A stretch of 64,000 bases of DNA from Microgenomates group bacterium Gr01-1014_16 (GCA_007376345.1 VMGA01000001.1:61747-125746), one strand, 5' to 3'. Counted from the first letter of the stretch, positions 1 through 56,448 are shown. Program-made: numbers and translations. The notes: generated by a model not told the origin, from the sequence alone.

Positions 1-301
1 TAATGTCGTCAAATATTGTGACATAGTCCACGCCTTCGATTCCTGCTACTGTTTCCGCTCGGTCTTTTTCTCCAATGATAGGGCGACTTGGTCCTTTGTA
101 ACTTTTGACTGATTGGTCACTATTTACTAGAATAAAGAGTACGTCTCCTTGTCTTTTCGCCTCTTGGATCGACTTGATATGACCAACGTGAATAATGTCA
201 AAACTGCCGTTACAAGTAACGATCTTTTTCCCTTGGTTTTTAAGTTGTCGTGCCAGGACGATTAATTTTTTCAGTGAAATTACTTTTTGACTTAGATACA
301 T
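1..301 (-). CDS. Partial CDS at the window edge, running off the 5' end of the window. D-beta-D-heptose-1-phosphate adenylyltransferase, i.e. HldE/RfaE domain II (cytidylyltransferase-like).
   Basis: The minus-strand translation from the ATG at 301..299 reads MYLSQKVISLKKLIVLARQLKNQGKKIVTCNGSFDIIHVGHIKSIQEAKRQGDVLFILVNSDQSVKSYKGPSRPIIGEKDRAETVAGIEGVDYVTIFDDI. It carries an HxGH nucleotidyltransferase motif (FDIIHVGH). The ORF track does not list it because it runs off the window. Confidence 0.6.
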   Translation of the reverse strand, partial: MYLSQKVISLKKLIVLARQLKNQGKKIVTCNGSFDIIHVGHIKSIQEAKRQGDVLFILVNSDQSVKSYKGPSRPIIGEKDRAETVAGIEGVDYVTIFDDI

Positions 302-311
302 ATTTGTAGCT

Positions 312-320
312 AATTGTAGC
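312..320 (-). promoter_or_regulatory. Putative extended -10 promoter (TGCTACAAT on the minus strand) driving the leftward adenylyltransferase gene.
   Basis: The reverse complement of attgtagca is tgctacaat (TGnTAnAAT), 10 nt upstream of the ATG at 301. A mirror-image copy at 341..349 drives the divergent rightward gene. Confidence 0.4.
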
Positions 321-340
321 ATTTGGTTTACTATTATTCG

Positions 341-349
341 TGCTACAAT
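341..349 (+). promoter_or_regulatory. Putative extended -10 promoter (TGCTACAAT) for the heptose kinase gene, giving a near-leaderless transcript.
   Basis: tgctacaat at 341..349 sits 8 nt upstream of the ATG at 358. It is an inverted copy of the element at 312..320. Confidence 0.4.
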
Positions 350-357
350 CCCTTCAA

Positions 358-1359
358 ATGAAGTTGTCAATACTTGAAAAAGAGAGGCTGTTTAGAATAA
401 TAGATAAGTTTTCTGATCAAAAAATTGTGGTTTTAGGGGATCTCATGCTGGATCGATATTTATGGTCTAAAGTAGACCGAATTTCTCCAGAGGCTCCAGT
501 TCCTATAGCTAAAATCGAAAATGAAACTCTTGTCCCTGGAGGTGCTGCCAATACTGTTTACAACCTGGCCAGTTTAGACGTTAAAGTTGAAGCAGTTGGT
601 CTTATTGGGAAAGACTTTGCTGGTGAGGAACTTGCACGAATTTTGACAAATAAAAATATTGGACTCTCGGGTTTAATAATTGATGAGAATCGTACCACTA
701 CTCTTAAAACTCGTGTGATGGCAGGTAACCATCAAATGATTAGGTTTGATTATGAAGATACAAGAGAGGTTAGCCCTAAACTTGAAGGTAAGTTGTTGTC
801 TGCTGTTGGTGAGTGTCTAAAAGATGCCACAATACTAATAATCTCTGATTATTCAAAGGGTTTGATTTCGAGTCGTTTTGCACATCGTGTAATTGCATTG
901 GTGAAAAAAAAGAGGATTAAAGTTCTGGTTGACCCAACTCCACAAAGTTTCAACAAATATAAACACTCTTACCTCGTAAAGCCCAATAAAAAGGAGGCTG
1001 AAACAATTGTTGACGAACGTATGGCTTCTGACTATTCTAATCTTGGCAGTATAGGACGAAAGATGATCAATAAACTAAAGACTGAAGTTTCATTCATTAC
1101 GCTGGGTGAGGATGGGATCGCTGTAATAGATTCGTCTAATAACATTTTCCGTATTCCTGCTTCTAGCCGCGATGTCTATGATGTTTCTGGTGCAGGCGAC
1201 ACTACCATGGCGGCGTTGGCAGCAAGCCTATCTGCAGGAGCAAATCTCAAAAGATCTGCAATTCTGGCGAACTTGTGCGCGGGAATAGTGGTGGGCAAAC
1301 TGGGTACGGCTACTTGCTCACGTCAAGAATTAAGAAATGGCGTTCGAGAACAGATATGA
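358..1359 (+). CDS. D-glycero-beta-D-manno-heptose-7-phosphate kinase, i.e. HldE/RfaE domain I (PfkB carbohydrate kinase family).
   Basis: N-terminal stretch: KIVVLGDLMLDRYLWSKVDRISPEAPVPI...GGAANTVYNLA. C-terminal stretch: DVSGAGDTTMAALAASL. This is the RfaE kinase-domain architecture. The track ORF starts at a GTG at 340, but the ATG at 358 behind the TGCTACAAT -10 box is preferred. The stop overlaps the next gene in an ATGA. Confidence 0.7.
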   Translation: MKLSILEKERLFRIIDKFSDQKIVVLGDLMLDRYLWSKVDRISPEAPVPIAKIENETLVPGGAANTVYNLASLDVKVEAVGLIGKDFAGEELARILTNKNIGLSGLIIDENRTTTLKTRVMAGNHQMIRFDYEDTREVSPKLEGKLLSAVGECLKDATILIISDYSKGLISSRFAHRVIALVKKKRIKVLVDPTPQSFNKYKHSYLVKPNKKEAETIVDERMASDYSNLGSIGRKMINKLKTEVSFITLGEDGIAVIDSSNNIFRIPASSRDVYDVSGAGDTTMAALAASLSAGANLKRSAILANLCAGIVVGKLGTATCSRQELRNGVREQI

Positions 1360-2411
1360 AAATTCTTGTTTTGTGTTTACCGGCAATTGGTGACGGATTG
1401 ATGATAACTCCCATGATTAGAGTATTGCGTAAGAGATTTCCTAATGCTGAAATAGACGTGGCTTGCATGATGGGTGGGGTCCAGTATGTATTTAAAAACA
1501 ATCCATACATTAGCCAAGTTCACTTTTTATCTATTTACACAAAAAATTGGGTTCGGGGAATTTTCCAAATATTATCCTTGAGGAAAAGAAAATATGACGT
1601 GTCAATTTTGTCTTTTCCGTCTTATAGAAGGGAATACCATTGGGTTCAGGCTGTAATTGGAGCAAAGAAAAGTATCGCCCACTTGTTCTCTACGGGGTAT
1701 TGGTTGGAGTTCAACTTTCTAAACACTGATTTGGTGGCTGTTGATGAAGCTAGCCATAATGTAATTAATAATCTCAATCTTACCTATGCTTTGGACATCG
1801 ATTGGCGAAAATATTTAGAGGAAAAGAATGTCAGATATGACCTAAAACTTGATACTTTGGATATCGATTTTGGCAAAGACTACGTTAAGAGACTTGGCTG
1901 GTCAAATAAAAAAATCGTGGCTATTCATCCCGGGTCAACCAATTCGCCGGCTGCTTTACTACGACGCTGGCCTTCTGACAGATACGCACAAGTGGCTCGG
2001 TATCTAATTCGAAAAAATTATAAAGTGATAATATTTGCGGGACCTGAAGAGAAAGAAGTCGGAAATGAATTAGAGCGTTTTGTGCACAGTAAGCAGTGCC
2101 ATCTGGTGGACAACGTCAATTTTAACCAGAGTTTGGGCATTTTGAACCAAATGGATCTTTTGGTTTGCAACGATAACGGATTTGGGCATTTGGCAAACGC
2201 GCTAGGAAAGGAGATTGTGACACTGTGGGCTTCGACTAATGATAAGTGGAGTTTGCCAATTAACAAAAAACTGGTCACCCTTGTACGAGCCCCAAAGTTC
2301 ATTCCCTGGTATCGGTATATCTTAAAACGATCTATACCAAAGGGGGTTAGTGGCGGTATGGAGCAAATACAAGTAAAAGAGGTAATCGAAGCTATAGAGA
2401 AGACTCTATAA
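1356..2411 (+). CDS. GT9-family glycosyltransferase (heptosyltransferase-like, RfaF/WaaC fold).
   Basis: MKILVLCLPAIGDGLMITPMIRVLRKRFPNAEIDVAC is a typical GT9 N-terminus, and the C-terminal region contains IHPGS...LVCNDNGFGHLANALGKEIV. The start is taken at the internal ATG at 1356, which overlaps the kinase stop in an ATGA. Confidence 0.7.
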   Translation: MKILVLCLPAIGDGLMITPMIRVLRKRFPNAEIDVACMMGGVQYVFKNNPYISQVHFLSIYTKNWVRGIFQILSLRKRKYDVSILSFPSYRREYHWVQAVIGAKKSIAHLFSTGYWLEFNFLNTDLVAVDEASHNVINNLNLTYALDIDWRKYLEEKNVRYDLKLDTLDIDFGKDYVKRLGWSNKKIVAIHPGSTNSPAALLRRWPSDRYAQVARYLIRKNYKVIIFAGPEEKEVGNELERFVHSKQCHLVDNVNFNQSLGILNQMDLLVCNDNGFGHLANALGKEIVTLWASTNDKWSLPINKKLVTLVRAPKFIPWYRYILKRSIPKGVSGGMEQIQVKEVIEAIEKTL

Positions 2412-2949
2412 GTTCGCAGAGAGTGTGAATGATTACCAGGTGGACTTCCTGGATAAGAGGGGTTTTGTTTGAAGGAATAATTAAATTGATGTTGCAGAGG
2501 TTTTTGAGTTTACCTCCATTACCTGTTAAAGATATGGTTTTAACTTGGAGTGATTTGGCTGCTTTAGCGGCGGCTAAAATATTGGGAGAGTTGCCACTAG
2601 TGCTGATACAGAAGAGCACGTCCCCTTGTTTTGCAACAGCCTCCACCTGGCGAGAGAATACTTTATCGAATCCGTAGTCGTTGGCTATGGCCGTAAGGGC
2701 CGACGTGTCTGTGGTCAGAGCAATCGCGGGCATGGCCTTGCGTTCTTTTTGATACCGGCCGACCAGTTCGGCGGCGAAATGTTGAGACTGGGCGGCACTG
2801 CCGCCGTTGCCGCAAATCAGAAGTTTGCCGCCGGATTTGAATGTTTGAGTTATCAACTTGGCCGCTTGACTGATGGGAATGCGGAGTTTGGGAAGTGATT
2901 GTTTAATCAACTTACTCGAAGCGGTGAAATGATCGTCAATGTTTCGCAT
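2392..2949 (-). CDS. gmhA: Phosphoheptose isomerase GmhA (SIS domain; sedoheptulose-7-phosphate isomerase).
   Basis: KLLICGNGGSAAQSQHFAAELVGRY...VLFCISTSGNSPNILAAAKAAK is the canonical GmhA SIS-domain signature. Length is 185 aa. Confidence 0.8.
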   Translation of the reverse strand: MRNIDDHFTASSKLIKQSLPKLRIPISQAAKLITQTFKSGGKLLICGNGGSAAQSQHFAAELVGRYQKERKAMPAIALTTDTSALTAIANDYGFDKVFSRQVEAVAKQGDVLFCISTSGNSPNILAAAKAAKSLQVKTISLTGNGGKLKNLCNINLIIPSNKTPLIQEVHLVIIHTLCELIESSL

Positions 2950-3682
2950 AAATGCGTAACCAAAATTCGTCTATTTTTAACAATGGCAAAATGACCAGGA
3001 CTATATTAACTCCAAACTGGGGAATTGGCCATTGGCTAATAAAGAACTTGGATTTGAAGTTGTTTCTTTGCAAGATTTTCAAAATAGTCGATAGCTTATT
3101 TTCCGGGTTATAAGGGCTCGCGTGAAATTCTAGGATGATGTTTTTGACGAGCTTTAATTTTGGTTCAATTTCTTGAACGACTTCTGTTTCCGCGCCTTCG
3201 ATATCCAGCTTAAGTAAATCTATGGGAGAGTTTATATATTGGGAAAGCCTTACCGTTGAGACCTGGACTATTTTAGATCTGTCTTTATTGTTAAATTTGT
3301 TTTCTTTTAACGAATCTCCCCTGCCCCAAGGATTCTGTTTAGACTTACTGGTATAGAAATTCATTTTCCCGGATTTCCCTGCCACAGCCGCGTTTACCAA
3401 TTTAATCCGGGTTAGTTTGTTTTGAGATATGTTTTTCTTAAGTAGTGCAAAGCTTCTAGGACTTGGTTCGAAGGCGGTAATTTTAGCTTTGGGAAATTGT
3501 TCTTTAAAATACAAAACCGTTTCGCCTATTAACGCGCCGACGTCGAAGATTACCGGGTCCGGTTTGGAAGTATCAAACTGATAATAATTTTTCTCGTACA
3601 GTTCTTTTAACATTTCGTCCAACTCGGCTTCGTTGACGTAAGAAATTAACCAGTTTTTAAATTTTTTTGTTTTTATTCCCAT
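2936..3682 (-). CDS. FkbM-family SAM-dependent methyltransferase.
   Basis: FDVGALIGETVLYF...AFEPSPRSFALLKKNI...KLDIEGAETEV is the FkbM (Methyltransf_21) pattern. Confidence 0.7.
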   Translation of the reverse strand: MGIKTKKFKNWLISYVNEAELDEMLKELYEKNYYQFDTSKPDPVIFDVGALIGETVLYFKEQFPKAKITAFEPSPRSFALLKKNISQNKLTRIKLVNAAVAGKSGKMNFYTSKSKQNPWGRGDSLKENKFNNKDRSKIVQVSTVRLSQYINSPIDLLKLDIEGAETEVVQEIEPKLKLVKNIILEFHASPYNPENKLSTILKILQRNNFKSKFFISQWPIPQFGVNIVLVILPLLKIDEFWLRIYAKH

Positions 3683-5667
3683 GGCCAGACTTTGAAGGTT
3701 ACGTTAATTTCGTAATTCCCCAATTTGTCAACTTGCCAGCCATTGGCGTAGCCATTAATGGCAAAGTGCTTGTCGATAACGTCGTCGTTCACTTTTGCAA
3801 TCCAAAGATTGTTATAGTTTACTGAAAGGATAAGAATATATGGACTATTGGCATCCTTAATTTGATATCGGTAGTGAACTGGTGAAATCTTGACAATTTT
3901 ATAAGAGGGGAGTTTCGATTGATCTATCTTGGGTATGTCTGCCGATAATGAAAAGGCTGAAAGCAACGGAACAAAATCATCACTGTTTACCACCATATTC
4001 AATCCCTTCTTCAATGTTTCAGTTTCTGTCACGTCATTACTTAGATATCCCCAGTTTACGGGTACGTTCTCAAGTTGATATACATCTAAAGCGTCGAATG
4101 ATTTAGTGAGCCGAACATTCCTCATTTGAGAAGTCATTGATTTTGTTCCTTCATAGTTCTCTTGCACTGTAGGCCCTGGCAACACGTCCTTGTGCACCAC
4201 TAGCGTATCTATGACAAAAAATTGCATAAGACGATATAGATTTGGCGACCGTAAATACTGATATATAAGAAGATATGGATCGTCGGGGAAAAAATACGTT
4301 TTTGATACTGAGGGACGACTAAATGTGTACTCTGAAGGTTCATCTCCAGAATATCCCCAATTGTATTCCAGCCCAGAACCGTGGAGGAAAGGAAGGTGAA
4401 GCAGGCGAAAACCTGATTGACCATTTAAATAACCATCAGCAAGCTGGTAGGATGGAGGCACTTCAATCTGATACCCCGCAAAAACTTGGGCCGTCCACAT
4501 TGGTCTTAATAACACAAAACATACTACAAACAAAATTAGGGTTCTAATATGGCGAGATGGTATCTTAGACAGGCCCAAAGCTACCAGCAAGGAGTAGGGA
4601 AGCAAAAAAACAACCCCAAGTTTTTCATATGGATTTCGTAAAACCATAGTGACTGGTATACTATTAAACAACCAGGAGTAAAAACTTTCTCCCCACGGCG
4701 GATTTGCTCCCTTGACTAAAAACCAGCCCGCAATTAACCATATTAAAAGAACCTTTCCACTTGGAAGTCTCAGTGTGGATACTATTCCGACAACTAACAA
4801 TCCCACCAACAGTTGACTAATAAGGTGTATCGGCCTAGAAGAAAAATACTTTGACCAAATAGCCCGGGAACCAAAATAGTAATTTTGCTTTAGCAGTACA
4901 ATTTCCGAGTTGGGATAATACTTGCTCACGTCTATAAGAGACCTTACATTAGAAGAAACATTAAGATAACGAGTATAGGAATTTTCCTTAGTAGCCAAAG
5001 GATACCACCACCAAGCTGCGGCAAGAAGCCAGACGGTAACTCCAATAATTGCGGGGACAAATTTCCGATACTTTAGCCACACGATTCCCGCTGGTATCCA
5101 CAATGAAAAAATCGATGCTGTTAGGGTGAAAATATTTGAAAAAATGAAAGAAGTTATAACCAGTAATAGTAGGTACCTTACCTTTCTTGAATCCAACCAT
5201 CTAATCCAGATGTAAAGAAATAGAGGGAGATAAGACCATAGAAAAAATAATTCGTATATAAAGCGCTGGAGAACTTGAGAAAGGAAAAACAGATTAAATA
5301 CATAGAGGAGTGCAGCATACAATCTGGTATATTCTCTTGAATTGGGCAACAATAACTTAGTTAGTGGAGGAATTGATATTAGGGGGGTCACAATCAATAA
5401 AAAGAAAATTAACTGTTGAATCCTTAAACTAGGGACCCTTAAAGCGCTTAAGCCAGCTGAGAAGGCGTGTAGAGAAATTCGGGGTAACGAGAAGGGGTTG
5501 GTAAAGCCCAAGCCGGTATCTTGCCACAGATAAGATGACATTTGAAATGTTCTAATTGGGTTATAAAAGGGTAGTCCCTCCTCGGCATGAGCCAACATCT
5601 TCTTCTGACCGAACCAAATTGAGGTTAGAAGAAAAGGGACAATGAAAATTAATATCAATTTCTTCAT
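3673..5667 (-). CDS. Large polytopic membrane protein with a C-terminal soluble domain. Possibly a GT-C-type glycosyltransferase (arabinofuranosyl/mannosyl-transferase-like).
   Basis: 664 aa. The N-terminal two-thirds are hydrophobic (many W/F/L-rich helices). The roughly 200-aa C-terminus is hydrophilic. No diagnostic motif was recognised. Confidence 0.45.
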   Translation of the reverse strand: MKKLILIFIVPFLLTSIWFGQKKMLAHAEEGLPFYNPIRTFQMSSYLWQDTGLGFTNPFSLPRISLHAFSAGLSALRVPSLRIQQLIFFLLIVTPLISIPPLTKLLLPNSREYTRLYAALLYVFNLFFLSQVLQRFIYELFFLWSYLPLFLYIWIRWLDSRKVRYLLLLVITSFIFSNIFTLTASIFSLWIPAGIVWLKYRKFVPAIIGVTVWLLAAAWWWYPLATKENSYTRYLNVSSNVRSLIDVSKYYPNSEIVLLKQNYYFGSRAIWSKYFSSRPIHLISQLLVGLLVVGIVSTLRLPSGKVLLIWLIAGWFLVKGANPPWGESFYSWLFNSIPVTMVLRNPYEKLGVVFLLPYSLLVALGLSKIPSRHIRTLILFVVCFVLLRPMWTAQVFAGYQIEVPPSYQLADGYLNGQSGFRLLHLPFLHGSGLEYNWGYSGDEPSEYTFSRPSVSKTYFFPDDPYLLIYQYLRSPNLYRLMQFFVIDTLVVHKDVLPGPTVQENYEGTKSMTSQMRNVRLTKSFDALDVYQLENVPVNWGYLSNDVTETETLKKGLNMVVNSDDFVPLLSAFSLSADIPKIDQSKLPSYKIVKISPVHYRYQIKDANSPYILILSVNYNNLWIAKVNDDVIDKHFAINGYANGWQVDKLGNYEINVTFKVWPWE

Positions 5668-6692
5668 TATCTAATAAAAGACGCCATTGAATCAGTCAAA
5701 AATTTTCTGCCTGTTTTATTTTTTATAAATGTATACAGAAGTATATCAGTTACGGAAATTGTAACTATCGGTTCCATCAAGAGCGCCCAATCTTTGTGCT
5801 TTAAAAATCGGATAAAACCTCTGATGGCCGCTGGGAGGAAAAGATTGGCATAGATAACAAATAGAATCAATTTGAATACTTCGTATTTGTTGTGAGTGTC
5901 TAATATCGTATAGTGATATTTTCCATATTCGGGAAAGTAATGCATACCCATATTGCGGACACGCTTTTGTAATAAATGCCTGAAGTTTGTAGCATGATAG
6001 TGATAGTATCCGGGTTCGGGGACATAAGCAAAATAAGGATAACCGGATCGTACGCAGTTAATAATAAAATCATGATCAAAATAATCTTTTGTAGTCCAGT
6101 TAGGTGTCTTTTTTAAATACTTAATTCTATAAAACATGCGAGCTGCTGGGGGTATTTTTTTGTCCTCATATTTGCAAACAATGTAATTTTTCTTCGTCTC
6201 TATAAAGGTTTTTTCTACAGGTAAAAAGAGGAACTCCAATAGTGGGTCGCACTGACAATAGTGATAAGAAAGAAACCTGGGAACCCAGTGCATATTTTTA
6301 TGCGGATATTCCTTGGTGAACGTTGCCACCAGTCGGTCATCGTCAAGAAGTGGTTTAATCATGCTTTTAATAAAGTTTCTACCTCTTAAAACAATATCCT
6401 GTTCTAGATAAAAAACGAACTCTCCTTGAACTTTGTGAAGACCTTTCACCCAGTTTGAGTACAACCCTCCTTCCGGATGAAGAAAAACCCTTGCACCAAA
6501 CTTTCTTGCAATATTTACACTTTCGTCAGTGGATCCATTATCAACTACAACCACATCAATAAGGTTAGTTGAATATATCTGACTCTTGACCGATTCCAAA
6601 CAGTTCCGAACACCCTCCCCACCATTTAAGGTGAGTAAAATAAACGACACCTTTGGCCATTTAATCATCATGTCATGTGGCATATTTAACAA
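5667..6692 (-). CDS. GT2-family glycosyltransferase (GT-A fold).
   Basis: VSFILLTLNGGEGVRNCLESV...VVVVDNGSTDES is a typical GT2 N-terminal signature. Confidence 0.7.
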   Translation of the reverse strand: MLNMPHDMMIKWPKVSFILLTLNGGEGVRNCLESVKSQIYSTNLIDVVVVDNGSTDESVNIARKFGARVFLHPEGGLYSNWVKGLHKVQGEFVFYLEQDIVLRGRNFIKSMIKPLLDDDRLVATFTKEYPHKNMHWVPRFLSYHYCQCDPLLEFLFLPVEKTFIETKKNYIVCKYEDKKIPPAARMFYRIKYLKKTPNWTTKDYFDHDFIINCVRSGYPYFAYVPEPGYYHYHATNFRHLLQKRVRNMGMHYFPEYGKYHYTILDTHNKYEVFKLILFVIYANLFLPAAIRGFIRFLKHKDWALLMEPIVTISVTDILLYTFIKNKTGRKFLTDSMASFIR

Positions 6693-7581
6693 AACAATCT
6701 ACTACCCTTTGCCATGATCTAAACTTTTTTCCTAGTCTTTTTTGAGTATCTTGACTCATTAATCCACCATCTTTGGGATATCTGTTTGGATGTGTATTAA
6801 GATATTCGTCGATGCTAGCTTTTTTGACCTTATTCCTATCTGGGCGCACATTCGACATTAAATACTCAGCCAACTCCACTGGAGTAGTAACGTCGTCGCT
6901 TGCTACGTGATATATACCACTCATTCTTGCATCAATTAGTTGTATCAATGAATCTACAAGTTCAGGTATATATGTCAAAGTTATGTTTTGATCACAAAAA
7001 AGCGGATAGGAATTACCGGTGTCGTAAAGCCACTGAATTTTTCCAATATAATCTAACCTCGGATCATAGATAGGTTTAGTCACATTACCTATCCTCACAA
7101 CACAAGCGTTCTTGTTTGAAATGACTGCTTGTTCTGCCTGTCTTTTAGTCCAACCGTACCAAGATAAATCATTTGGATCGTTTTCAGGAATATCGCTTTC
7201 GGAATATGGACCTTTTTTCCCTTCTTTTCCGCTAAAAACCATATCTGAGGATATATGAAGTAAATATATCTCATATGTGCTGCATGCTTCGGTTAAGTTC
7301 TTTGCCCCAACCACATTGGCCAACCAGGCACTTCCATTTTTATCGCCTCTTTGTAATTCGGCGGTATTGGCGTTTCGATGAGCGGCAAAGTTAATAATTG
7401 TATCTGGTTGATATTTCGTTACAGATTGTGCCACTGACTCTTTTTCTGATACATCCATTTGAGACGGTGAAGGACAGGCTAATAAGTAGTCATTTCTTGC
7501 AGCAAGTGCGCGTATGCATGTAGATCCAATAAATCCACTTGATCCCGTAATTAAAATTCGTCTTTCTGATTTAGCGGCCAT
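6673..7581 (-). CDS. RmlD-like NAD(P)-dependent sugar reductase (dTDP-4-dehydrorhamnose reductase family).
   Basis: A Rossmann motif ILITGSSGFIGS occurs near the N-terminus. A YxxxK-containing stretch (WYGWTKRQAE) follows, and the length (302 aa) is RmlD-like. Confidence 0.6.
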   Translation of the reverse strand: MAAKSERRILITGSSGFIGSTCIRALAARNDYLLACPSPSQMDVSEKESVAQSVTKYQPDTIINFAAHRNANTAELQRGDKNGSAWLANVVGAKNLTEACSTYEIYLLHISSDMVFSGKEGKKGPYSESDIPENDPNDLSWYGWTKRQAEQAVISNKNACVVRIGNVTKPIYDPRLDYIGKIQWLYDTGNSYPLFCDQNITLTYIPELVDSLIQLIDARMSGIYHVASDDVTTPVELAEYLMSNVRPDRNKVKKASIDEYLNTHPNRYPKDGGLMSQDTQKRLGKKFRSWQRVVDCFVKYAT

Positions 7582-7614
7582 TTAACCCGATTATACAAAA
7601 TGTCCAGAGTTTTA

Positions 7615-9898: not shown

Positions 9899-10681
9899 TT
9901 ATATACTACCGTTACTCCTGCTTAATAAATACTCACACAAGTACTCCTCGGAAGTTTTTAATGACGGATATAAACGTCTTAGTTTCTTGGTATCCATTTC
10001 GTATAACTGCCTCTTCGCGTCTGGCATGACCTGTATTTTCTTTTTAAAAATTTTTCTTGCGTTCAAAAAGGAGAAGGCTCCTTCTCCACCGACATTAAAG
10101 ACTTCATTTTTGACGGATTTATTCAGGAGTATTTCGATCACTTCGGCGATTGCAAAAGTGGTTATAAGTTGAAGTTTTGAGTTAAGAGTAATATAAAGCG
10201 GATTATCTTTAATAACATCATAGATTGGTCCTTTTTTTAATTTTTTCCCAAGTAGCATCGAAGATCGTAAAATAAGAAATTTTTCTTTATATTTCTTTAC
10301 AATGAGTTCGGCCAAATGCTTGTGAAATCCGTAAGCCTCTAACTTTTTTGGGTCAATTTGCACGCTTTCGTTGGTGTACTTAGGTCCAGTGTGATTCTCG
10401 TATACGTCGGGAGAGGAAATATAAATATAAACATCGCAAGGAAAATCAAAAATACTTTTGATTACGGAAACCGAGGAGGCGAGAAAATCTTCAACCGGGT
10501 TTTGGTTTGCCCAAAAACGCTTGCTATTCCCATTAGCGTTTATCACAATATCGAAAAACTTTCCAATTTGAGCCTGATAGTTATCTTTATTTATTGGCGT
10601 AACAAGAAATTTAGTTGAAAAATATTGAACTAAATCAGAACCCAACATCCCACTGCCGCCAATAACTGCTAATGTTTTCAT
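9899..10681 (-). CDS. Short NAD-dependent epimerase/dehydratase-family protein (SDR).
   Basis: An N-terminal AVIGGSGMLGSDLV Rossmann motif. The specific substrate cannot be assigned. Confidence 0.55.
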   Translation of the reverse strand: MKTLAVIGGSGMLGSDLVQYFSTKFLVTPINKDNYQAQIGKFFDIVINANGNSKRFWANQNPVEDFLASSVSVIKSIFDFPCDVYIYISSPDVYENHTGPKYTNESVQIDPKKLEAYGFHKHLAELIVKKYKEKFLILRSSMLLGKKLKKGPIYDVIKDNPLYITLNSKLQLITTFAIAEVIEILLNKSVKNEVFNVGGEGAFSFLNARKIFKKKIQVMPDAKRQLYEMDTKKLRRLYPSLKTSEEYLCEYLLSRSNGSI

Positions 10682-10684
10682 GGA

Positions 10685-11650
10685 TTAATATGAAATTGCT
10701 CGCTGATAATTATTATCAAACCATTGAGCTGTTTCTTTGATCCCTTTTTTCAACGGTGTCGGAGGTATCCAATTGAGAATTTTTTTCATTTTTTTAATTC
10801 CGAACAGTTTATGGAGCGCTCCATCCGGCTTACTAGTGTCGTATACCAGCTTGCCTTTGTAGCCTAGTACTTCCTTGATCGTTTCTGCAAGTTCGGATAC
10901 GGAAACGCCGACCCCAGTGGCAATGTTTAATGGATCCACGCTGTTATATATTGAAGCAGCCCTTAAAATAGCCTCTGCTCCGTCTTTCACATATAGCCAA
11001 TCTCTAATGGGTTTTCCTGTCCCCCAAACTTCGACAAAGGGTAACCTTTTTTTCTTAGCCTCATAAATTTTTCTGATAAGACCGGCTAAAGCCTTGCTTT
11101 GCTCGGGATTAAAATGTTCTCCCGGGCCATACATATTTGCCATGATAAGGTGAATAGAATTGAAATCATGCTGCCTTTTAAGGGCAAGTCCATACACCGT
11201 GGAGGCTTTCCTGGCAAACCCGTAGCTAAATATGCTATCATGCACCCACCCATTCCAATAATCCTCCTCATTCATTTCACCGCGCTCGACATACCCAGGA
11301 TAGGAACATCCTGCAACAATGTTGATGAATTTTTTGACGCCTGTTTGTTGGGAGGCATTCATTAAATGCAACCCCATGAGGAGATTATCCATAAGCAAGT
11401 CGGCCTGTTTACCCTCATGATATCCAATTCCACCCTGGTTTGCGGCGCAGTTGATCACTAAATCAGGTTTAGCTATGTTTAGATAGGAAAAACAGTCCTC
11501 ACGTTTTCTGAAATCAATCCCTTCTTTTGTTCTGGGAACAAGAATCTCGCACTTTACTTGTCGTAAGTGATTAACAATATGAGACCCAAAAAAACCGTTT
11601 CCTCCAGCTATAATGATTCTCTTTCCCTTGAAATAATTTAGATACTTCAT
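10685..11650 (-). CDS. GDP-L-fucose synthase-like enzyme (Fcl/GMER family 3,5-epimerase-4-reductase), paralog 1.
   Basis: NMYGPGEHFNPEQSKALAGLIRKIYEAK, VEVWGTGKPIRDWLYVKDGAEA and SKPDGALHKL align with the E. coli Fcl motifs [46 protein letters not shown] and SKPDGTPRKL. Confidence 0.7.
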   Translation of the reverse strand: MKYLNYFKGKRIIIAGGNGFFGSHIVNHLRQVKCEILVPRTKEGIDFRKREDCFSYLNIAKPDLVINCAANQGGIGYHEGKQADLLMDNLLMGLHLMNASQQTGVKKFINIVAGCSYPGYVERGEMNEEDYWNGWVHDSIFSYGFARKASTVYGLALKRQHDFNSIHLIMANMYGPGEHFNPEQSKALAGLIRKIYEAKKKRLPFVEVWGTGKPIRDWLYVKDGAEAILRAASIYNSVDPLNIATGVGVSVSELAETIKEVLGYKGKLVYDTSKPDGALHKLFGIKKMKKILNWIPPTPLKKGIKETAQWFDNNYQRAISY

Positions 11651-12630
11651 AAATTTTTTTTCTTCTTTTTTTTGTCTATTTCGTTTTTTATCCAGTCATA
11701 GTTTTTCTTAATACCGATCTTTAACGGAATCTTTGGTTCCCATTTGAGAAGTTTTCGAACTAATGTGTTATCAGAATTTCTACTTCTTACTCCTTGTGGT
11801 TTGGACAAGTCGTACCGTTTTTTTATGCTTTTTCCCGCAATTTCCGAAACAATATCAATAAATTCGTTTATTGAGACTGGGTGATCAGAGCCAATATTCA
11901 CTGGCTGATGAATTTCTGAGTGTGTAAGTCTGTAAATTCCTTGAAGACAGTCGTCTATATAACAATATGATCGCATTTGTTTACCATCACCCCAAACTTC
12001 AATCTCATCCCCATCCCTGGCTAAAGCGATTTTGCGACAAATTGCGGCGGGTGATTTTTCCCGTCCACCTTCATATGCCCCTAATGGACCATAGATATTG
12101 TGAAACCTGGCTACCCGGGTCTCTAATCCATAATCTTCATAATAATCAGCACAAAGTCTTTCGGCGAATAGTTTTTCCCAACCATACTCGCTGTCAGGAA
12201 GCGCAGGGTAAGCATAGCTTTCTTTAAGTCTTAAATTTTTTTCGGGTTCTTTAAAGTCCGGATAAACCAGAGCCGATGAAGGATAAAAAAATCTGTTCAC
12301 TTTGTTTTGTCGGGATGCTTCAAGCATGCTAGTATCAATTAAAATATTGTCGTTCATAAGCCGGGCCTTTACGCTGTCAATGAAACCAATACCACCCATG
12401 TTGGAGGCCAGATTGTATACTTGATCAACGTTTTTAGTAGCTTTTAAGGCGTTTCTTTTAAAACGAAGGTCTAGCAGTAAAAATTCATCCGCTGCTGTCT
12501 TTTCAAACTCGGGATATTTAATATCAACGCCTCTTACCCAATAATCCTTTTTTTTTAGAAACTTTACGAGATGATGTCCTATAAAACCTCCAGCCCCGGT
12601 AACCACAGCCCGTATCTTTCTTTTTTTCAT
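11647..12630 (-). CDS. GDP-mannose 3,5-epimerase-like SDR (GME family).
   Basis: RFHNIYGPLGAYEGGREKSPAAICRKIA closely matches the GME signature RFHNIYGPFGTWKGGREKAPAAFCRK. The N-terminus has the VTGAGGFIGHHLV Rossmann motif. Confidence 0.6.
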   Translation of the reverse strand: MKKRKIRAVVTGAGGFIGHHLVKFLKKKDYWVRGVDIKYPEFEKTAADEFLLLDLRFKRNALKATKNVDQVYNLASNMGGIGFIDSVKARLMNDNILIDTSMLEASRQNKVNRFFYPSSALVYPDFKEPEKNLRLKESYAYPALPDSEYGWEKLFAERLCADYYEDYGLETRVARFHNIYGPLGAYEGGREKSPAAICRKIALARDGDEIEVWGDGKQMRSYCYIDDCLQGIYRLTHSEIHQPVNIGSDHPVSINEFIDIVSEIAGKSIKKRYDLSKPQGVRSRNSDNTLVRKLLKWEPKIPLKIGIKKNYDWIKNEIDKKKKKKNL

Positions 12631-13721: not shown

Positions 13722-14551
13722 GCCTGCTTAATTTTTCCGACTAAGTATCCTAATCCGCCAAAAAGTTGTTCTAATGTTAATACTATAAACATTCCTGCTG
13801 TGAGCGCCGGGCTGCTGACTAATCGTCGCCAGTTTTTGTAAAAAATAGGCCGCAAAAAATAGATAGTCTTGGGGCCAACTATGGGAAGGCGGTGCTTTTT
13901 AAAATAACGGTGCGAAGAAAGGCCGTAATAATATTTTTTTTTGATAAGTTTTGAAAGCGAGGGGATTCTTTCGTAATGGTTTATGCGGGATGAAACGCGG
14001 CCGATTTGATATCCCATTTTAACGATAGTCTCCGGCAGATCCCAGTCTTCCGGACCGGTAATTGTCTCGTCGTATCCACCCGCTTTTTCGAACAGCTTCT
14101 TTGAAAAAAATCTAGCTGCATCGGTATCCGGGTCTCCAAAGTCGCTGTAAAACGATCTTTCGAAGGCTTTGACTTTTTCCCAATAGTTAACAGCTACCGG
14201 CTGTTCCGGAATAGCAATAGCCCCAATCGCAGAATTGGCAGTAATAAGGTTGACGCAGTCCGTTATCGCCGATGGTGTTGCTTGCATGTCCGCGTCTAAA
14301 AACAGCAGGTATTCTCCTTTTGATTTTTTGGCGCCGAAATTGCGCTGAACGCTTCTTTCGGCGTGGGATCGCAAATATACAAATTTTGTGAATTTCCTGG
14401 CTATTTCTGCCGTAGCATCTGTTGAGCCATCGTCTACTACTATAACCTCACAACTAGGATAGGTTTGATTTTTGATAGCCTGGAGATTTTTGGCTATAAC
14501 TTGAGCTTCGTTTCGGGTGGGAATAATGACCGACACTAAAGGAACCGGCAT
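13718..14551 (-). CDS. GT2-family glycosyltransferase.
   Basis: VSVIIPTRNEAQVI...EVIVVDDGSTDAT...LFLDADM carries the DXD signature. Confidence 0.75.
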   Translation of the reverse strand: MPVPLVSVIIPTRNEAQVIAKNLQAIKNQTYPSCEVIVVDDGSTDATAEIARKFTKFVYLRSHAERSVQRNFGAKKSKGEYLLFLDADMQATPSAITDCVNLITANSAIGAIAIPEQPVAVNYWEKVKAFERSFYSDFGDPDTDAARFFSKKLFEKAGGYDETITGPEDWDLPETIVKMGYQIGRVSSRINHYERIPSLSKLIKKKYYYGLSSHRYFKKHRLPIVGPKTIYFLRPIFYKNWRRLVSSPALTAGMFIVLTLEQLFGGLGYLVGKIKQA

Positions 14552-16340: not shown

Positions 16341-17100
16341 CTTTTTTAGAATCTTTCTTACTCTCTTTTACTAATTGACTAGCTTTTAGCAATTCGTTGT
16401 AGTCATTAATGTTGATGTTATTCCCGTTTATAAGAAAGCCGAAGGCCCTGTTTATCTTCGCCAGATGGTTGATCGTGTAGGTTATTTCTCTCTCTTTACG
16501 GATCGGGTGGATGGGAGTTTTTCTGATGTGATTAAAGATATCCGGATGGAAGAGATAGACTCCACAACCCCTCAACATATACGGAGGGTCTTCTGGTTTC
16601 TCGATGATTTCAATTATCCTGCCGTTTTTGGAAAGTTTGACAGAGCAAGTATGCCGTAAAACACTGATATCGTCTTCTTTGACTACGCCCTCCATAACAA
16701 TGGCATTTGTCTTGAAAAACTCCTGGATCATTCGCTCGAGTGATTGGGTTACGGTGCAGTCGTCCCCATACATAACGACGAAGGGCTGTTTTTTTATATA
16801 TTTTTCGGTTAGAAGCATGGCTTCCCCGGTGCCGTTGAGGGTTTTTTGTTCAACAAAATAAATATTCGCCCGAAGATCCATTTGAATAAACTTGAAATAC
16901 TCTATTATTTTTTCTTTGAAGACGTTAACAATAATATAAATGTCTTCGATGCCTATGCTTTGCATTTGGTCGACCACGTAATGAATTATGGGCCGATCGT
17001 ACAGGGGAAAAAGGGCTTTAGGGAGCAAACTCGACAGATACCCTAGCCTGCTGCCTGAACCGGCAGCGGGAATGACGCCGATCTTAATTTTATTTTGCAT
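16321..17100 (-). CDS. Sugar-1-phosphate nucleotidylyltransferase (RmlA/GlmU-N-like NTP_transferase).
   Basis: IGVIPAAGSGSRL, a G-x-G-t-R-L-like motif at the N-terminus. Length is 259 aa. Confidence 0.7.
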   Translation of the reverse strand: MQNKIKIGVIPAAGSGSRLGYLSSLLPKALFPLYDRPIIHYVVDQMQSIGIEDIYIIVNVFKEKIIEYFKFIQMDLRANIYFVEQKTLNGTGEAMLLTEKYIKKQPFVVMYGDDCTVTQSLERMIQEFFKTNAIVMEGVVKEDDISVLRHTCSVKLSKNGRIIEIIEKPEDPPYMLRGCGVYLFHPDIFNHIRKTPIHPIRKEREITYTINHLAKINRAFGFLINGNNININDYNELLKASQLVKESKKDSKKVIEVLF

Positions 17101-18130
17101 CTCTGATTTCGAAGAGGTTTTTGTTTTTTTTGACCCAATCGACTAGTTCACGCACTCCTTTTTCGGGGGTTACTCTGGCAGACCAACCCAAATTCTTTTT
17201 GGCTTTGTCTGTATTACAAACGAAATACACCAGATCGCCCATGCGGGATGGTTGGTATTTGATCTGGGATTTTTTTCCCAATATTTTTTCGATCAAATGG
17301 ATGCACTCGATTAGCGAAAGAATTGTTTTGGTTCCGCCGCCGATGTTATAACACCCTGGTTTTTGTTTTTTATAAAAGGCGTCGAAGGCTCTGACTAAAT
17401 CTGAAACGTGAAGAATGTCGCGAACTTGCTTTCCGGTACCGAAGATTGTCAACGGATAGCTCATCACAGATCGGATGGCAAAGTTGGCTACCCAACCATG
17501 ATCTTCACCACCAAACTGGCGCGAACCGTAAAGGCCGGTTAGCCTAAATGAGGCCAAGGGAAGCTTGTAGGTATCGACGTATGTTTGAGTGTACAAATCC
17601 AGGGTGTGTTTGGAAGCATGGAGTGGGGTAAGAAGGCCTTCGACCAGTCGGTGCGTTTCGTCTATTTCGGCGGGTTTTCTGATGTAGCGGGTTTTACCTT
17701 CTTTTACTTCTTCATTAATTTTATTTCCGTAAATGTGAATGGTGGAACAAGAAACAGTCGGGATTTTATATTTTCGAGCCATTTCTAAAACGTTAAATGT
17801 GCCAACGACATTGGTCGTAAAGTCTAGTTCCGGATCTTCCCAGGAAATGGTCATGGCTGGCTGGGCGGCGGTGTGAATTATAAAATCAGATTTTTTGGCG
17901 TATGACTCCAGGGCCTCTTTGTCACGGACGTCTTCTTTGACAATATCAACTTTAATTTTTTTTAAGTAATCGACATTATGGAAACGGGCTTTTTCGGTAG
18001 AGTAACCGGTGCGGCGTAATTCAAACTTAGTCAAGTTATCGTAGGCAGTGACTTTGGCACCCTGCTTTTTGTAGTATTCACAAACATGGCTCCCAGCAAA
18101 CCCGCACCCACCCGTTACTAAAACTTTCAT
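17090..18130 (-). CDS. NAD-dependent nucleotide-sugar epimerase/dehydratase (extended SDR; CDP-paratose-2-epimerase/UDP-Glc-4-epimerase-like).
   Basis: MKVLVTGGCGFAGSHV Rossmann motif. A YxxxK stretch (SKHTLDLY). The start is chosen at the internal Met; the track ORF extends a further 22 codons upstream. Confidence 0.7.
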   Translation of the reverse strand: MKVLVTGGCGFAGSHVCEYYKKQGAKVTAYDNLTKFELRRTGYSTEKARFHNVDYLKKIKVDIVKEDVRDKEALESYAKKSDFIIHTAAQPAMTISWEDPELDFTTNVVGTFNVLEMARKYKIPTVSCSTIHIYGNKINEEVKEGKTRYIRKPAEIDETHRLVEGLLTPLHASKHTLDLYTQTYVDTYKLPLASFRLTGLYGSRQFGGEDHGWVANFAIRSVMSYPLTIFGTGKQVRDILHVSDLVRAFDAFYKKQKPGCYNIGGGTKTILSLIECIHLIEKILGKKSQIKYQPSRMGDLVYFVCNTDKAKKNLGWSARVTPEKGVRELVDWVKKNKNLFEIRDAK

Positions 18131-18155
18131 GGCAGATAATTTATAACACTGTTTT

Positions 18156-18560
18156 TTAAGATGTAAAGGGGGTCTGTGATTTTTTAAACACTCCAAATTT
18201 CATACCCAGATAATTCATTGAAGTGGAGGTGCAGATGGCGGTAAACCAAGCGAGGACTTTAATTTGGGTCAAATTTAAAACAACTTGGTTTGCTAAGTTG
18301 TTGGCTATCAAAGAACTAGCATAAAGAATAATGAATGGTAATATTTGGTGTCGGGGATGATGATTTTGTGCTTGAAACACAAAAGACCGGTGGCCCACAA
18401 ATGAAACAGTGGCGCCGCTGATATACGAGATGGCTTTGGATAGGGGAATTGGAATAATGGGTGCAATAAAAAGTAGACCAAAATAAACTACAAAGTCTAC
18501 GCCAACTGCTAACGCTCCCACAAATACAAACCTGATAATTTGGTTTAATGTTTGAACCAC
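18156..18560 (-). CDS. GtrA-family small membrane protein (polysaccharide-synthesis / lipid-linked sugar translocation accessory protein).
   Basis: 134 aa with four predicted TM helices. IRFVFVGALAVGVDFVVYF...NNLANQVV...KFGVFKK matches GtrA-like (PF04138) topology and motifs. Confidence 0.65.
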   Translation of the reverse strand: MVQTLNQIIRFVFVGALAVGVDFVVYFGLLFIAPIIPIPLSKAISYISGATVSFVGHRSFVFQAQNHHPRHQILPFIILYASSLIANNLANQVVLNLTQIKVLAWFTAICTSTSMNYLGMKFGVFKKSQTPFTS

Positions 18561-18584
18561 AGTTAATTATATTATAATTAGAGG

Positions 18585-21189: not shown

Positions 21190-21228
21190 AGATTAACTTA
21201 CTATTCTAACACTAAAAGCAATTCGGCT

Positions 21229-21241: not shown

Positions 21242-22783
21242 ATGTCGATGAAGCTGGCAAAGTTATTTTTGGGTGTTGTTTTAGTTTATGGAATCGTCTG
21301 GCGAAGTTTACCCGGGGTGGATAAGCTTTTTTATTGGAGGGATGATTGGGTTTTTTTATGGTCAAACAAAAATAACCCTCCGATTTTATACAATGAAATT
21401 GGGGGCCCGGCGTGGTGGATTAAGAGCGGATTATTTCATCCGGCTTACGCTCGGATGTTTGGGAAAATTCCGGTTGAAACTCTTCAGTTTTCAGGAGTAG
21501 TCATTAAAACCATTAACAGCTTTGTTGTTGGGTTATTGGTTTATTCACTAGTACGTAAGAAATTACCAGCATTTTTGGCTATGCTTTTATTTGCCAGCTA
21601 CGGCGGGGCGGCGGAGGCGTACACATGGCACAGGATAACCGGAGTAGCGATGGGCTTTGCCACGCTGGCATTTGCTTTTCACAACTTTTTCTTGTCCAGT
21701 ACTAAAAAAATCTATTTGGTGGGCGTGCTGGCGGCATCAGTTGTCGCTCTATTTAGTTACTTTGGCAGAGTAGTGGGTATTTTTCCTTTATTTATTTTTT
21801 CCACGTCCTTGACTATGTACGAGAGATTTAAAAAGGAATATCTGGTTTATAGCTTATTTCTGATACTTTTGTTTTTGGGATTATTCGCTTTTACTAGAAC
21901 TAGCATTAATGCCGCTTCTGGGTCCGTCGTGGCCGAGACAATACTTAGTGAAATTAGTGATTATAAAAATATTAAAGTCTACTTCTCAAATTTGGGAAAT
22001 TTAGCTCAAAGTTCATTTGTAAAATTACCAGAATTGGGGGGACTGATCGGCTCAATCTCCCCTCTTAGTTTATTTATTGGATGTGGACTGTTCGCTCTCT
22101 GGATAATCTCTATTTTGGTTTTTGCGATAACCAGATCCAAATTTTTCAAATTAGTTGCTATTTGCTTGGCTTGGTTGTTTTTAACTTATTTTCCCAATTG
22201 GATGTATGCCGGTGGTGGACCGGGCACGATGATAGGTTCAGCGCATAGATATTTTGCAGTGTCCGCTATTTTTTTTCCTCTGATCGCGGGTATTGTTTTC
22301 TCAAGGATTTCCAAAACTTCCCAAATAGTTTTGTTTATTATCCTGCTAGCTTTATCTCTTAACTACTCGAGGTATCTTTTGGACAAAGAAAAATACTTAC
22401 GTGATTCTGGTAAGGTCCTCAAAGTTTATCGGGAAATCGTGAGGGAAACCGAAACCGACCCTCTGCCAAGATTAATAGTAATCGATACCCAGCTGGATTA
22501 CTTGGCTACTGGATGGTTTCCTTACGCTTATGGATACTATAAAGGGATACGAGAGCGAGAAAATTTTCCGCCGGTTTTTGCCAACTTGGACGCGGCGATA
22601 AAGTGGTTATGCGCACCCTCCCTTGAAGACAGAGAGGCGCTGGGGTCGATGTATGGCGTGCCTAGTTATCAAAAAGACAGACCAGTGCTCGCGGAAAACA
22701 TCTACGCGTGGAGGTTTTCTAAAGAAGGAGAGCTTAGCAATTTGACCAGCTCTCTTAGAGACCACTTAAAACAATGCAACTAG
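21242..22783 (+). CDS. Polytopic integral membrane protein, 513 aa. Candidate GT-C-type enzyme or polymerase/ligase-like protein.
   Basis: Highly hydrophobic, with many F/L/I-rich helices. The C-terminal roughly 130 aa are hydrophilic. Confidence 0.45.
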   Translation: MSMKLAKLFLGVVLVYGIVWRSLPGVDKLFYWRDDWVFLWSNKNNPPILYNEIGGPAWWIKSGLFHPAYARMFGKIPVETLQFSGVVIKTINSFVVGLLVYSLVRKKLPAFLAMLLFASYGGAAEAYTWHRITGVAMGFATLAFAFHNFFLSSTKKIYLVGVLAASVVALFSYFGRVVGIFPLFIFSTSLTMYERFKKEYLVYSLFLILLFLGLFAFTRTSINAASGSVVAETILSEISDYKNIKVYFSNLGNLAQSSFVKLPELGGLIGSISPLSLFIGCGLFALWIISILVFAITRSKFFKLVAICLAWLFLTYFPNWMYAGGGPGTMIGSAHRYFAVSAIFFPLIAGIVFSRISKTSQIVLFIILLALSLNYSRYLLDKEKYLRDSGKVLKVYREIVRETETDPLPRLIVIDTQLDYLATGWFPYAYGYYKGIRERENFPPVFANLDAAIKWLCAPSLEDREALGSMYGVPSYQKDRPVLAENIYAWRFSKEGELSNLTSSLRDHLKQCN

Positions 22784-24708: not shown

Positions 24709-27601
<2,893 letters not shown>

Positions 27602-27618
<17 letters not shown>

Positions 27619-34158: not shown

Positions 34159-34183
34159 GGATTGATTTTATAATACAGCAGAT

Positions 34184-35932: not shown

Positions 35933-35948
35933 GAGCAGATTATAATAC

Positions 35949-39991: not shown

Positions 39992-40395
39992 AAGTTCCCA
40001 TTTACAATACTAGGTAGTATTGTAATTAAAAATTCTTTTTCTTCAGGGAAATACATGTGGCCGATGGCAAAATCTATTGGGAACCAATCGTAGGTACTGT
40101 CAGATTTCTGATGATTAAAGTTGTGAGATTTCATTAAATACATATGAATATCTTTGACCACTTCTTCGCCCCAATCTTCTGTGGATTTTCTTGTTAAAAA
40201 GCCTAGTTTCTTGACAATTTCCAGATTTTGCAATCCAGTTTCTTCCTTAACTTCTCTCAATGCCGCTTGTTCCAAAGTTTCTCCAGGTTCAACATGACCC
40301 TTAGGAAAGCGTGTTAGATCGCTTTCTGGATAGGTTAATAAAAGAATTTTGTTGTTGTGGATGATGATGCCACCCGCTGATATTGCTTTCTTCAT
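39988..40395 (-). CDS. NUDIX hydrolase.
   Basis: The Nudix box GHVEPGETLEQAALREVKEETGL (GX5EX7REUXEEXGU). Length is 135 aa. Confidence 0.75.
   Translation of the reverse strand: MKKAISAGGIIIHNNKILLLTYPESDLTRFPKGHVEPGETLEQAALREVKEETGLQNLEIVKKLGFLTRKSTEDWGEEVVKDIHMYLMKSHNFNHQKSDSTYDWFPIDFAIGHMYFPEEKEFLITILPSIVNGNL
40002..40025. promoter_or_regulatory. Palindromic element family, copy 1 (type A), reading ttacaatacta-gg-tagtattgtaa, directly upstream of the GT2 start at 39991.
   Basis: A perfect inverted repeat with 11-nt arms and a 2-nt spacer. On the transcribed (minus) strand it reads TTACAA-17nt-TAAATG, a possible -35/-10 pair. It overlaps the 3' end of the NUDIX gene. Confidence 0.5.
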
Positions 40396-56433: not shown

Positions 56434-56448
56434 GGCTTTTGATATTAT

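Follow-up and report, generated by a model that had tools for sequence, protein, structure and literature searches.

An HldC-GmhB fusion protein in a putative nucleotide-heptose supply module of a Microgenomates glycan island

Activated heptose for Gram-negative lipopolysaccharide (LPS) is made in the order GmhA-HldA-GmhB-HldC-HldD, and separate hldA and hldC genes are known in Neisseria (PMC5387315). Heptose nucleotides are also used outside the LPS core (PMC11573728, PMC11461863, PMC5387315), and two commentaries on Tang et al. 2024 describe three architectures of the heptose nucleotidyltransferases termed HENases, namely monodomain, kinase/nucleotidyltransferase and isomerase/kinase/nucleotidyltransferase (PMC11573728, PMC11461863). 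The Candidate Phyla Radiation (CPR) is placed in a monoderm clade by a preprint on outer-membrane tethering (10.1101/2021.05.31.446380), and its heptose biosynthesis appears as ADP-L,D-heptose in a metabolic reconstruction of Paceibacteria (PMC9166423); a literature search for heptose and heptosyltransferases in CPR and DPANN returned that one mention of heptose and none of CPR heptosyltransferases. The locus described here, comprising a minus-strand hldC-gmhB gene, a divergent hldA gene coupled to a GT9 glycosyltransferase, and a convergent gmhA gene, opens a 64-kb window (the whole stretch analysed) taken from a 139-kb contig of Microgenomates group bacterium Gr01-1014_16 (Patescibacteria group), a tiny, uncultured bacterium of groundwater type in which an outer membrane is not expected. 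This locus is probably a nucleotide-heptose supply module, together with its transferase, embedded in a very large surface-glycan island. A broader proposal, somewhat favoured by the evidence below, is that many CPR bacteria, though monoderm and without LPS, make a surface glycan or glycoprotein that contains heptose and is probably O-methylated, by means of an HldC-GmhB fusion, which would be a fourth HENase architecture, and a CPR-specific GT9 clade, the donor in this Microgenomates lineage being un-epimerised ADP-D,D-heptose.

The HldC-GmhB fusion and the heptose enzymes

The minus-strand gene at the start of the window runs 235 codons beyond the window edge on the source contig, forming one open reading frame (ORF) of 335 aa. 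The visible fragment (301-2) matches CTP_transf_like (54.9 bits) and rfaE_dom_II (E 3.6e-29) and carries HVGH, which agrees with the nucleotidyltransferase domain that a sequence-only reading of the window had assigned to it. In the full protein, residues 16-155 align with rfaE_dom_II (TIGR02199, E 1.3e-45) over profile positions 2-142 of 144, and residues 164-307 constitute a GmhB domain that exceeds the cut-offs of both NF006506 (191.4 bits, cut-off 178) and TIGR00213 (168.7 bits, cut-off 149.6). This second domain is of the HAD-IIIA type, with the motifs DxDGT, TNQSG, RKP and GDxxxD together with a Cys/His zinc loop. In an alignment of 20 fusion homologues, the HxGH of the HldC domain and the GmhB motif positions are invariant, as are residues D170, D172, T174, C252, H254, C260, C262 and K264. 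The best PDB match of the fusion is E. coli GmhB (2gmw, 126 bits), and PDB entry 5x9q, deposited as a putative cytidylyltransferase, also matches it (78.7 bits). The sequence-only reading had reported gmhB as not evident; this was wrong, because the C-terminal half of the edge-cut gene is a GmhB domain, and the missing enzyme was an artefact of where the window ends. With GmhB supplied by the fusion, the pathway to activated heptose would be complete, and the domain assignments predict that the fusion joins two consecutive pathway steps, the third and the fourth.

The remaining enzymes are assigned with scores above their family cut-offs. Specifically, the kinase matches TIGR02198 rfaE_dom_I with 355.7 bits (cut-off 345) over profile positions 2-312 of 315, and PfkB with 150.5 bits, while GmhA matches TIGR00441 with 225.9 bits (cut-off 209.45) and SIS_2 with 109.6 bits. 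The kinase ends without a nucleotidyltransferase domain, which lies instead in the opposite-strand gene, so that it is not a bifunctional HldE. In the proposed route, GmhA would isomerise sedoheptulose-7-phosphate (step 1), the stand-alone PfkB kinase HldA would produce beta-D-heptose-1,7-bisphosphate (step 2), the C-terminal GmhB domain of the fusion would take off the 7-phosphate (step 3), and its HldC domain, a putative heptose-1-phosphate adenylyltransferase strongly supported by its gene context, would perform the nucleotidyltransferase step (step 4). Family assignments, fusion, synteny and motif positions are observations with the statistics given here, and it is from them that enzyme activity, nucleotide specificity and acceptor are predicted.

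The gene arrangement (Table 1) largely follows what the sequence-only reading had described. ORFs and profile matches bear out an HldE split into divergent kinase and nucleotidyltransferase genes, and the spacer between them (302-357) has the claimed length of 56 nt. The GT9 start codon (ATG, 1356-1358) overlaps the kinase stop codon (TGA, 1357-1359) as ATGA, supporting the suggested translational coupling, and gmhA is indeed convergent with GT9, the two 3' ends sharing 20 nt. No intrinsic terminator was found between these two overlapping convergent genes, and an Rfam scan of the entire window gave zero matches.

Table 1. Features at the heptose locus and in the adjoining minus-strand unit (window coordinates)
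Feature	Position	Strand	Remarks
hldC-gmhB, 5' 100 codons	1..301	-	window edge cuts gene; full gene 335 aa from ATG 301 (L001 8946-7942)
Partial third box copy GCTACAA	304..310	-	within spacer
Extended -10-like box TGCTACAAT for hldC-gmhB	313..321	-	TACAAT ends 11 nt before ATG 301
Extended -10-like box TGCTACAAT for hldA-GT9	341..349	+	hexamer ends 8 nt before ATG 358
hldA, PfkB-type kinase, 333 aa	358..1359	+	TIGR02198; GenBank TSC88397.1
GT9 glycosyltransferase, putative ADP-heptose-dependent heptosyltransferase	1356..2411	+	PF01075
gmhA, sedoheptulose-7-phosphate isomerase	2392..2949	-	last gene of long minus-strand unit; TIGR00441; GenBank TSC88399.1
FkbM-family methyltransferase	2936..3682	-	overlaps gmhA; TIGR01444 100.3 bits
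664-aa protein, no family match	3673..5667	-	adjoins FkbM gene and gmhA, also in relatives
GT2 glycosyltransferase	5667..6692	-	profile match; unit shared with gmhA
RmlD-like short-chain dehydrogenase/reductase	6673..7581	-	unit shared with gmhA; 27.8 bits on HldD TIGR02197

The gene content of the locus is already annotated in GenBank (TSC88396.1 to TSC88399.1), with some misleading product names. TSC88397.1, which is the kinase only, is publicly named "rfae bifunctional protein", and TSC88396.1, which encodes both HldC and GmhB domains, carries only the name of a heptose bisphosphate phosphatase. The practical lesson is that a gap in a pathway can arise at a window edge, as the GmhB gap did, and that public product names can hide a fusion, as they do here.

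The fusion recurs widely among relatives. At least 120 clusters of fusion proteins (57-100% identity) were recovered, and both Pfam domains are present in 120 of 120 clusters among the matches listed. A scan of GTDB species genomes yielded 80 loci, of which 26 encode HldC-GmhB as a single ORF according to a frame check. These fused loci are nearly all labelled Patescibacteria (Parcu-, Kerfeld-, Nealson-, Levyi-, Doudna- and Gracilibacteria, among others), and one is labelled Woesearchaeota. Most DPANN loci are not fused: the same frame check shows gmhB and hldC there as separate, adjoining genes whose order is reversed.

The divergent layout reflects an inversion, specific to this lineage, of a cassette that is otherwise conserved and co-directional. 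Elsewhere among the fused loci, hldA stands upstream of the fusion on the same strand, mostly abutting it directly, gmhA is often found ahead of hldA, and GT9 and hldD are frequent neighbours as well; the usual layout elsewhere is a co-directional gmhA-hldA-hldC/gmhB(-hldD) operon. The hldA-GT9 pair is inverted relative to the fusion only in the window and in its four closest relatives (L003, L004, L088 and, closest of all, L087), whose proteins are 67-77% identical to those of the window, and the FkbM-gmhA synteny is retained in L003, L004 and L087. Among archaea, the DPANN loci L038-L042, L047 and L052, and also L043 (Woesearchaeota/Nanoarchaeia), carry a gmhA, hldD and hldA cassette like that of CPR, and the Woesearchaeota locus L033 bears a CPR-type HldC-GmhB fusion. 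This distribution suggests that the heptose cassette has been exchanged between CPR and DPANN.

The divergent spacer and its start-proximal boxes

Within the 56-nt spacer, TGCTACAAT forms a perfect 9-nt inverted repeat, and its two copies are the only exact matches in 64 kb. Of the mirrored boxes that the sequence-only reading had placed at 312-320 and 341-349, the second stands as described and the first lies at 313-321; the distances to the starts, given there as 8-10 nt, are 8 nt on the plus side and 11 nt on the minus side. In both boxes TGn directly precedes a TAnnnT hexamer (TGn-TACAAT), the arrangement of an extended -10 element, and neither is accompanied by a Shine-Dalgarno motif. The claim of a divergent extended -10 promoter pair is plausible, but the pair is not peculiar to this locus, since start-proximal -10 boxes look like a general feature of this genome. 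When a TATAAT-like box is defined by at most one mismatch and an end 5-12 nt upstream of a start codon, such boxes precede 13 of 21 operon-first starts in the window, compared with 2.9% of random positions (p ~2e-15) and 5 of 38 internal starts. By the same comparison, a Shine-Dalgarno-like motif accompanies just 1 of the 21 operon-first starts and 1 of the 38 internal ones, whereas 7.9% of random positions have one. Intergenic spacers across the window measure 15-70 nt (for example 18561-18584, 34159-34183, 35933-35948, 56434-56448, 7582-7614 and 59514-59530). To judge from these patterns, the organisation of this Microgenomates genome looks leaderless and Shine-Dalgarno-free throughout, and the promoter pair matters mainly as a clear example of it. 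Transcription of hldA-GT9 and of hldC/gmhB would start at two back-to-back extended -10 promoters without a -35 element, and leaderless or near-leaderless mRNAs would result, as for most transcription units of the genome.

The -10-like boxes are positionally conserved in the four closest relatives, and the exact 9-mer is not. L087 has TTCGTGCTAAAAT in place of the window's TTCGTGCTACAAT and, on the other side, TATAAT at 11 nt from the ATG as in the window; the boxes of L088 are TTGTAAAAT and TTGTATAAT, and those of L003 are TGATATCAT and TGATAAAAT, with a start codon 6 nt from either box. As a conserved operator TGCTACAAT was rejected, the exact motif being absent from all four related divergent loci.

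A regulatory role in the window itself is a separate matter. The inverted repeat and the third half-copy might act mainly as an operator through which a dimeric regulator controls both divergent units, a reading that may coexist with the -10 role and is rather unlikely. The perfect 9-mer arms lie 19 nt apart, such a repeat arising in 0.32% of spacer shuffles; the third GCTACAA stands one helical turn away, creating a tandem 10-nt direct repeat (TATTTGTAGC then TAATTGTAGC); and GCTACAA is over-represented in the window, with 15 copies versus 5.7 expected. However, 7 of the 9 positions are fixed in any TGnTAnAAT box, so that much of the arm identity is expected anyway, and the remaining 12 copies of GCTACAA are intragenic. 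Moreover, the window showed no gene for a DNA-binding regulator, the partial copy is not conserved in L003, L004 or L088, and what the four relatives keep at the same distances are -10-like hexamers.

Three points tell against promoters of the leaderless type at these boxes. A consensus -35/-10 scan lists no promoter at either box, hence no -35 hexamer 16-18 nt upstream, an element that extended -10 promoters can do without (in the window as a whole the scan finds no more promoters than in shuffles); a strictly leaderless start would be expected closer than the 11 nt seen on the fusion side; and the boxes can be read as codons, ATG/GTG-CTA-CAA. The last point leads to an alternative in which the true starts are ATG 322 for the fusion and GTG 340 for the kinase, the repeat encoding Met-Leu-Gln at both N-termini and the spacer shrinking to 17 nt. 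An A or G before each 9-mer does provide the in-frame start, and the public fusion call begins at ATG 322 (342 aa), but this alternative is improbable. Homologues have 19-27 residues before the IVT.NG block, which is preceded by 26 residues from ATG 301 and by 33 from ATG 322; ATG 301 is preferred as the fusion start because these N-terminal lengths fit it and do not fit ATG 322. In addition, the public kinase call uses ATG 358, with the short versions the profile matches start at residue 15-16, relatives lack the M-L-Q extension, and the -10-to-start spacing fits the genome-wide pattern. The public start codon of TSC88396.1 is thus probably placed 7 codons too far upstream.

Other start assignments and motifs in the window deserve mention. 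In two divergent pairs the longest ORFs share 5' sequence, 35 nt at 14517-14551 and 48 nt at 24709-24756, which means that one or both starts of each pair must sit further downstream, and exact-protein look-ups with the longest ORFs 21242-22783 and 59531-61027 matched nothing, which suggests that other start codons are used publicly. The extended -10 pattern TGNTANAAT is no commoner in the window than by chance and tends to be rarer, with 8 copies versus 14 expected (8 or more in 95 of 100 shuffles). It lies at 313-321, 341-349, 21203-21211, 33383-33391 and four other positions, half of them directly upstream of gene starts; this would fit selection against spurious promoters inside genes. Furthermore, two palindrome families, CATACT-N4-AGTATG (48738-48753, 50184-50199, 58058-58073) and AATACTAGGTAGTATT (40006-40021, 48711-48726, 58094-58109), are present in three copies each, with none expected by chance. 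All six lie just upstream of the minus-strand starts 39991, 48696, 50169 and 58042, where they might serve a small regulon of the glycan island, either as operators or as RNA hairpins.

The GT9 enzyme, its donor and the glycan island

The GT9 glycosyltransferase matches PF01075 Glyco_transf_9 with 84.3 bits (cut-off 22) and aligns end to end with E. coli WaaF (1psw, 62.9 bits). Its N-terminal GD and its C-terminal HPG...RRWP and NDNG.GHLA resemble the ADP-heptose-binding residues of WaaC/WaaF. It nevertheless scores under every LPS heptosyltransferase equivalog cut-off, with 104.8 bits for HepII (cut-off 134.6), 79.6 bits for HepIII (170.2) and 66.9 bits for HepI (185.3). The 99 detectable homologues come almost all from CPR genomes, and by these scores and this distribution the enzyme is assigned to a CPR-centred clade, apart from the WaaC/F/Q equivalogs. 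A functional link to heptose activation is suggested by P0136 (L086 6001-7554, GCA_040961635.1), a single 517-aa protein with an N-terminal HldC and a C-terminal GT9 domain that are 53% and 56% identical, respectively, to their window counterparts. This fusion is Rosetta-stone evidence that the GT9 clade works with a heptose nucleotidyltransferase, and its locus contains a Wzx-type flippase, GT2, GT4, FkbM and three methyltransferases. Similar company surrounds the window's GT9, with FkbM, the 664-aa protein, GT2 and an SDR-type gene nearby and methyltransferases and GT4s upstream. ADP-heptose is accordingly named here as the putative GT9 donor, supported indirectly by gene adjacency in many loci and by P0136.

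The stereochemistry of that donor depends on the epimerase HldD. The sequence-only reading had found hldD not evident, and this holds for the 64-kb window plus the 8.6 kb upstream of it (L001), 72.6 kb in all, and is not extended to the whole genome. None of the short-chain dehydrogenases/reductases (SDRs) scored in the window (6673-7581, 9899-10681, 10685-11650, 11647-12630, 17090-18196, 24709-25731, 25691-26629 and 26647-27618) reaches the TIGR02197 cut-off of 274.6 bits, the best having 72.2 bits. A tblastn search of the 72.6 kb with a true CPR HldD gave a generic SDR as its best match (58.9 bits, 24% identity), and in the L003 and L004 stretches it gave no match. In many relatives, a true HldD is encoded 3' of the fusion (L005, 310.2 bits against the same cut-off), and 25 loci contain HldD-like tblastn matches of 137 bits or more. 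The lack of HldD within 72.6 kb makes a D,D-heptose nucleotide the likely donor in the window's lineage, where it would probably be used directly in its un-epimerised form.

The nucleotide carried by the donor might differ as well. The nucleotidyltransferase domain may make CDP- or UDP-heptose, alone or beside ADP-heptose, with GT9 using that product, but this is doubtful. The HldC domain scores 154.8 bits on TIGR02199, under the adenylyltransferase equivalog cut-off of 181.5, and two commentaries describe some heptose nucleotidyltransferases as promiscuous (PMC11573728, PMC11461863). The hallmark Arg of that promiscuity in these sources (STTR5; position 5 of (F/L)XXGRSTT) is, however, absent from the window protein, whose sequence there is LGWEKGFSTS, and in relatives the same position is taken by an aromatic or aliphatic residue; one commentary notes that this Arg is not strictly required (PMC11461863).

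An ordinary LPS inner-core module, with lipid A-Kdo (3-deoxy-D-manno-octulosonic acid) made elsewhere in the genome and GT9 acting as a WaaC/WaaF-type core heptosyltransferase, is very improbable, for although the best NCBIfam and PDB matches of GT9 are heptosyltransferase II/WaaF, its GenBank name is heptosyltransferase II and the inspection covered part of the genome, its HepI, HepII and HepIII scores all fall short, its closest relatives are almost all CPR, the lineage is Patescibacteria, described as monoderm, and no lpx, kds (Kdo), waaA or core genes are present in the 64 kb plus flanks. The sequence-only reading had likewise seen no lipid A, Kdo or core genes in the window. A non-LPS setting within a Patescibacteria glycan island is thus supported, and from it we infer the absence of LPS.

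The 64-kb island itself contains GT2, GT4 and GT-C/PMT_2 proteins, methyltransferases, deoxy- and amino-sugar nucleotide enzymes, and membrane proteins without an assigned family, and methyltransferases and GT4s are also found upstream of the window. In the proposed mechanism, the coupled GT9 would transfer heptose onto a glycan intermediate in the cytoplasm, probably a lipid-linked one. The GT2, GT4 and GT-C enzymes and methyltransferases encoded nearby would extend and methylate this intermediate, which would end up in a surface glycan or glycoprotein other than LPS. Several observations weigh against the proposal as a whole: neither an initiating phosphoglycosyltransferase nor a Wzx flippase was recognised in the window, the GT9 scores lie below the heptosyltransferase cut-offs, the HldC score bears in the same way on adenylyl specificity, and the hldD and lpx/kds searches covered about 72.6 kb of the 139-kb contig.

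Large proteins without a family match accompany the heptose genes. Three of them, measuring 664, 741 and 1052 aa (window 3673-5667 (-), L001 846-3071 (-) and L001 1-859 (-)), have no Pfam, NCBIfam or PDB sequence match; the 664-aa one is a membrane protein. Those of 664 and 741 aa flank heptose genes in relatives too, and the L087 homologue of the former has a weak precomputed match to PF11847 GT-C_AftD, which is a hint only. All three could be extracytoplasmic transferases or polymerases of the glycan. Elsewhere in the island, a ribokinase-like PfkB gene at 47758-48696 (-) (TIGR02152, 234.8 bits, under its cut-off), a small protein with a PEP-utilizers domain at 48758-49078 (-), and an asparagine-synthase-like amidotransferase at 53680-55488 (-) sit among GT-C/PMT_2 genes and may be sugar-modifying accessories.

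Significance and comparison with known systems

If the proposal is true, ADP-heptose, a known innate-immune agonist, would be a routine metabolite of ultra-small episymbiotic bacteria, and GT9 enzymes would gain a non-lipid-A acceptor, widening the acceptor range of a supposedly LPS-specific family. Attachment to host cells is attributed to the CPR cell surface, whose chemistry is hardly characterised; heptose glycans would be part of that surface if the inference holds. The HldC-GmhB protein would also offer a convenient one-protein means of making ADP-heptose enzymatically. All of the families involved are known, a split HldE is ordinary, and the locus is largely ordinary apart from the fusion and its non-LPS setting. 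What is worth keeping is the CPR-typical HldC-GmhB architecture, the linked CPR GT9 clade in a lineage expected to lack LPS, the lack of HldD nearby, and a clear case of what looks like leaderless, Shine-Dalgarno-free organisation across the genome.

Leaderless mRNAs with a start-proximal -10 box have been described for Actinobacteria and Deinococcus. The window shares with them TAnnnT 5-12 nt before the start, the lack of a Shine-Dalgarno motif, and TG extensions, and differs in that the pattern is found in a Microgenomates genome, where leaderless mRNAs are predicted from it. A literature search on leaderless mRNAs in Patescibacteria returned two papers, one of which brings them up only in a different connection.

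Compared with non-LPS uses of heptose, the window would share the deployment of a heptose nucleotide beyond LPS with AAH/TibC autotransporter heptosylation, septacidin-type products and S-layer or capsule heptoses. Its transferase, in contrast, is a canonical-size GT9 placed among GT2, GT4, GT-C and methyltransferase genes, and no autotransporter or natural-product genes are present at the locus. The S-layer route of Aneurinibacillus, of the kind that the sequence-only reading had named as the precedent, proceeds through GDP-alpha-heptose with a GHMP kinase, from which the PfkB-kinase beta route indicated by the TIGR02198 match differs. Relative to the LPS heptosyltransferases WaaC, WaaF and WaaQ, the window enzyme is likewise a Pfam GT9 protein of about 350 aa, but it falls under their equivalog cut-offs and belongs to an essentially CPR-specific clade, in a lineage where a lipid A-Kdo acceptor is not expected.

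The closest counterpart in enzymology is the Gram-negative ADP-L-glycero-beta-D-manno-heptose pathway, with which the locus shares four enzyme families, predicted to act in the same order, and the PfkB-type beta-anomer route. It departs from that pathway in having no HldD in 72.6 kb, a Patescibacterium as its host, and no LPS genes in view. The nucleotidyltransferase domain is homologous to the HENases, with HxGH and a C-terminal STS/STT motif, and its nucleotidyltransferase-phosphatase combination is not among the three architectures that the two commentaries list. Whereas E. coli HldE joins the second and fourth steps, kinase and nucleotidyltransferase, the fusion of the window joins the third and the fourth.

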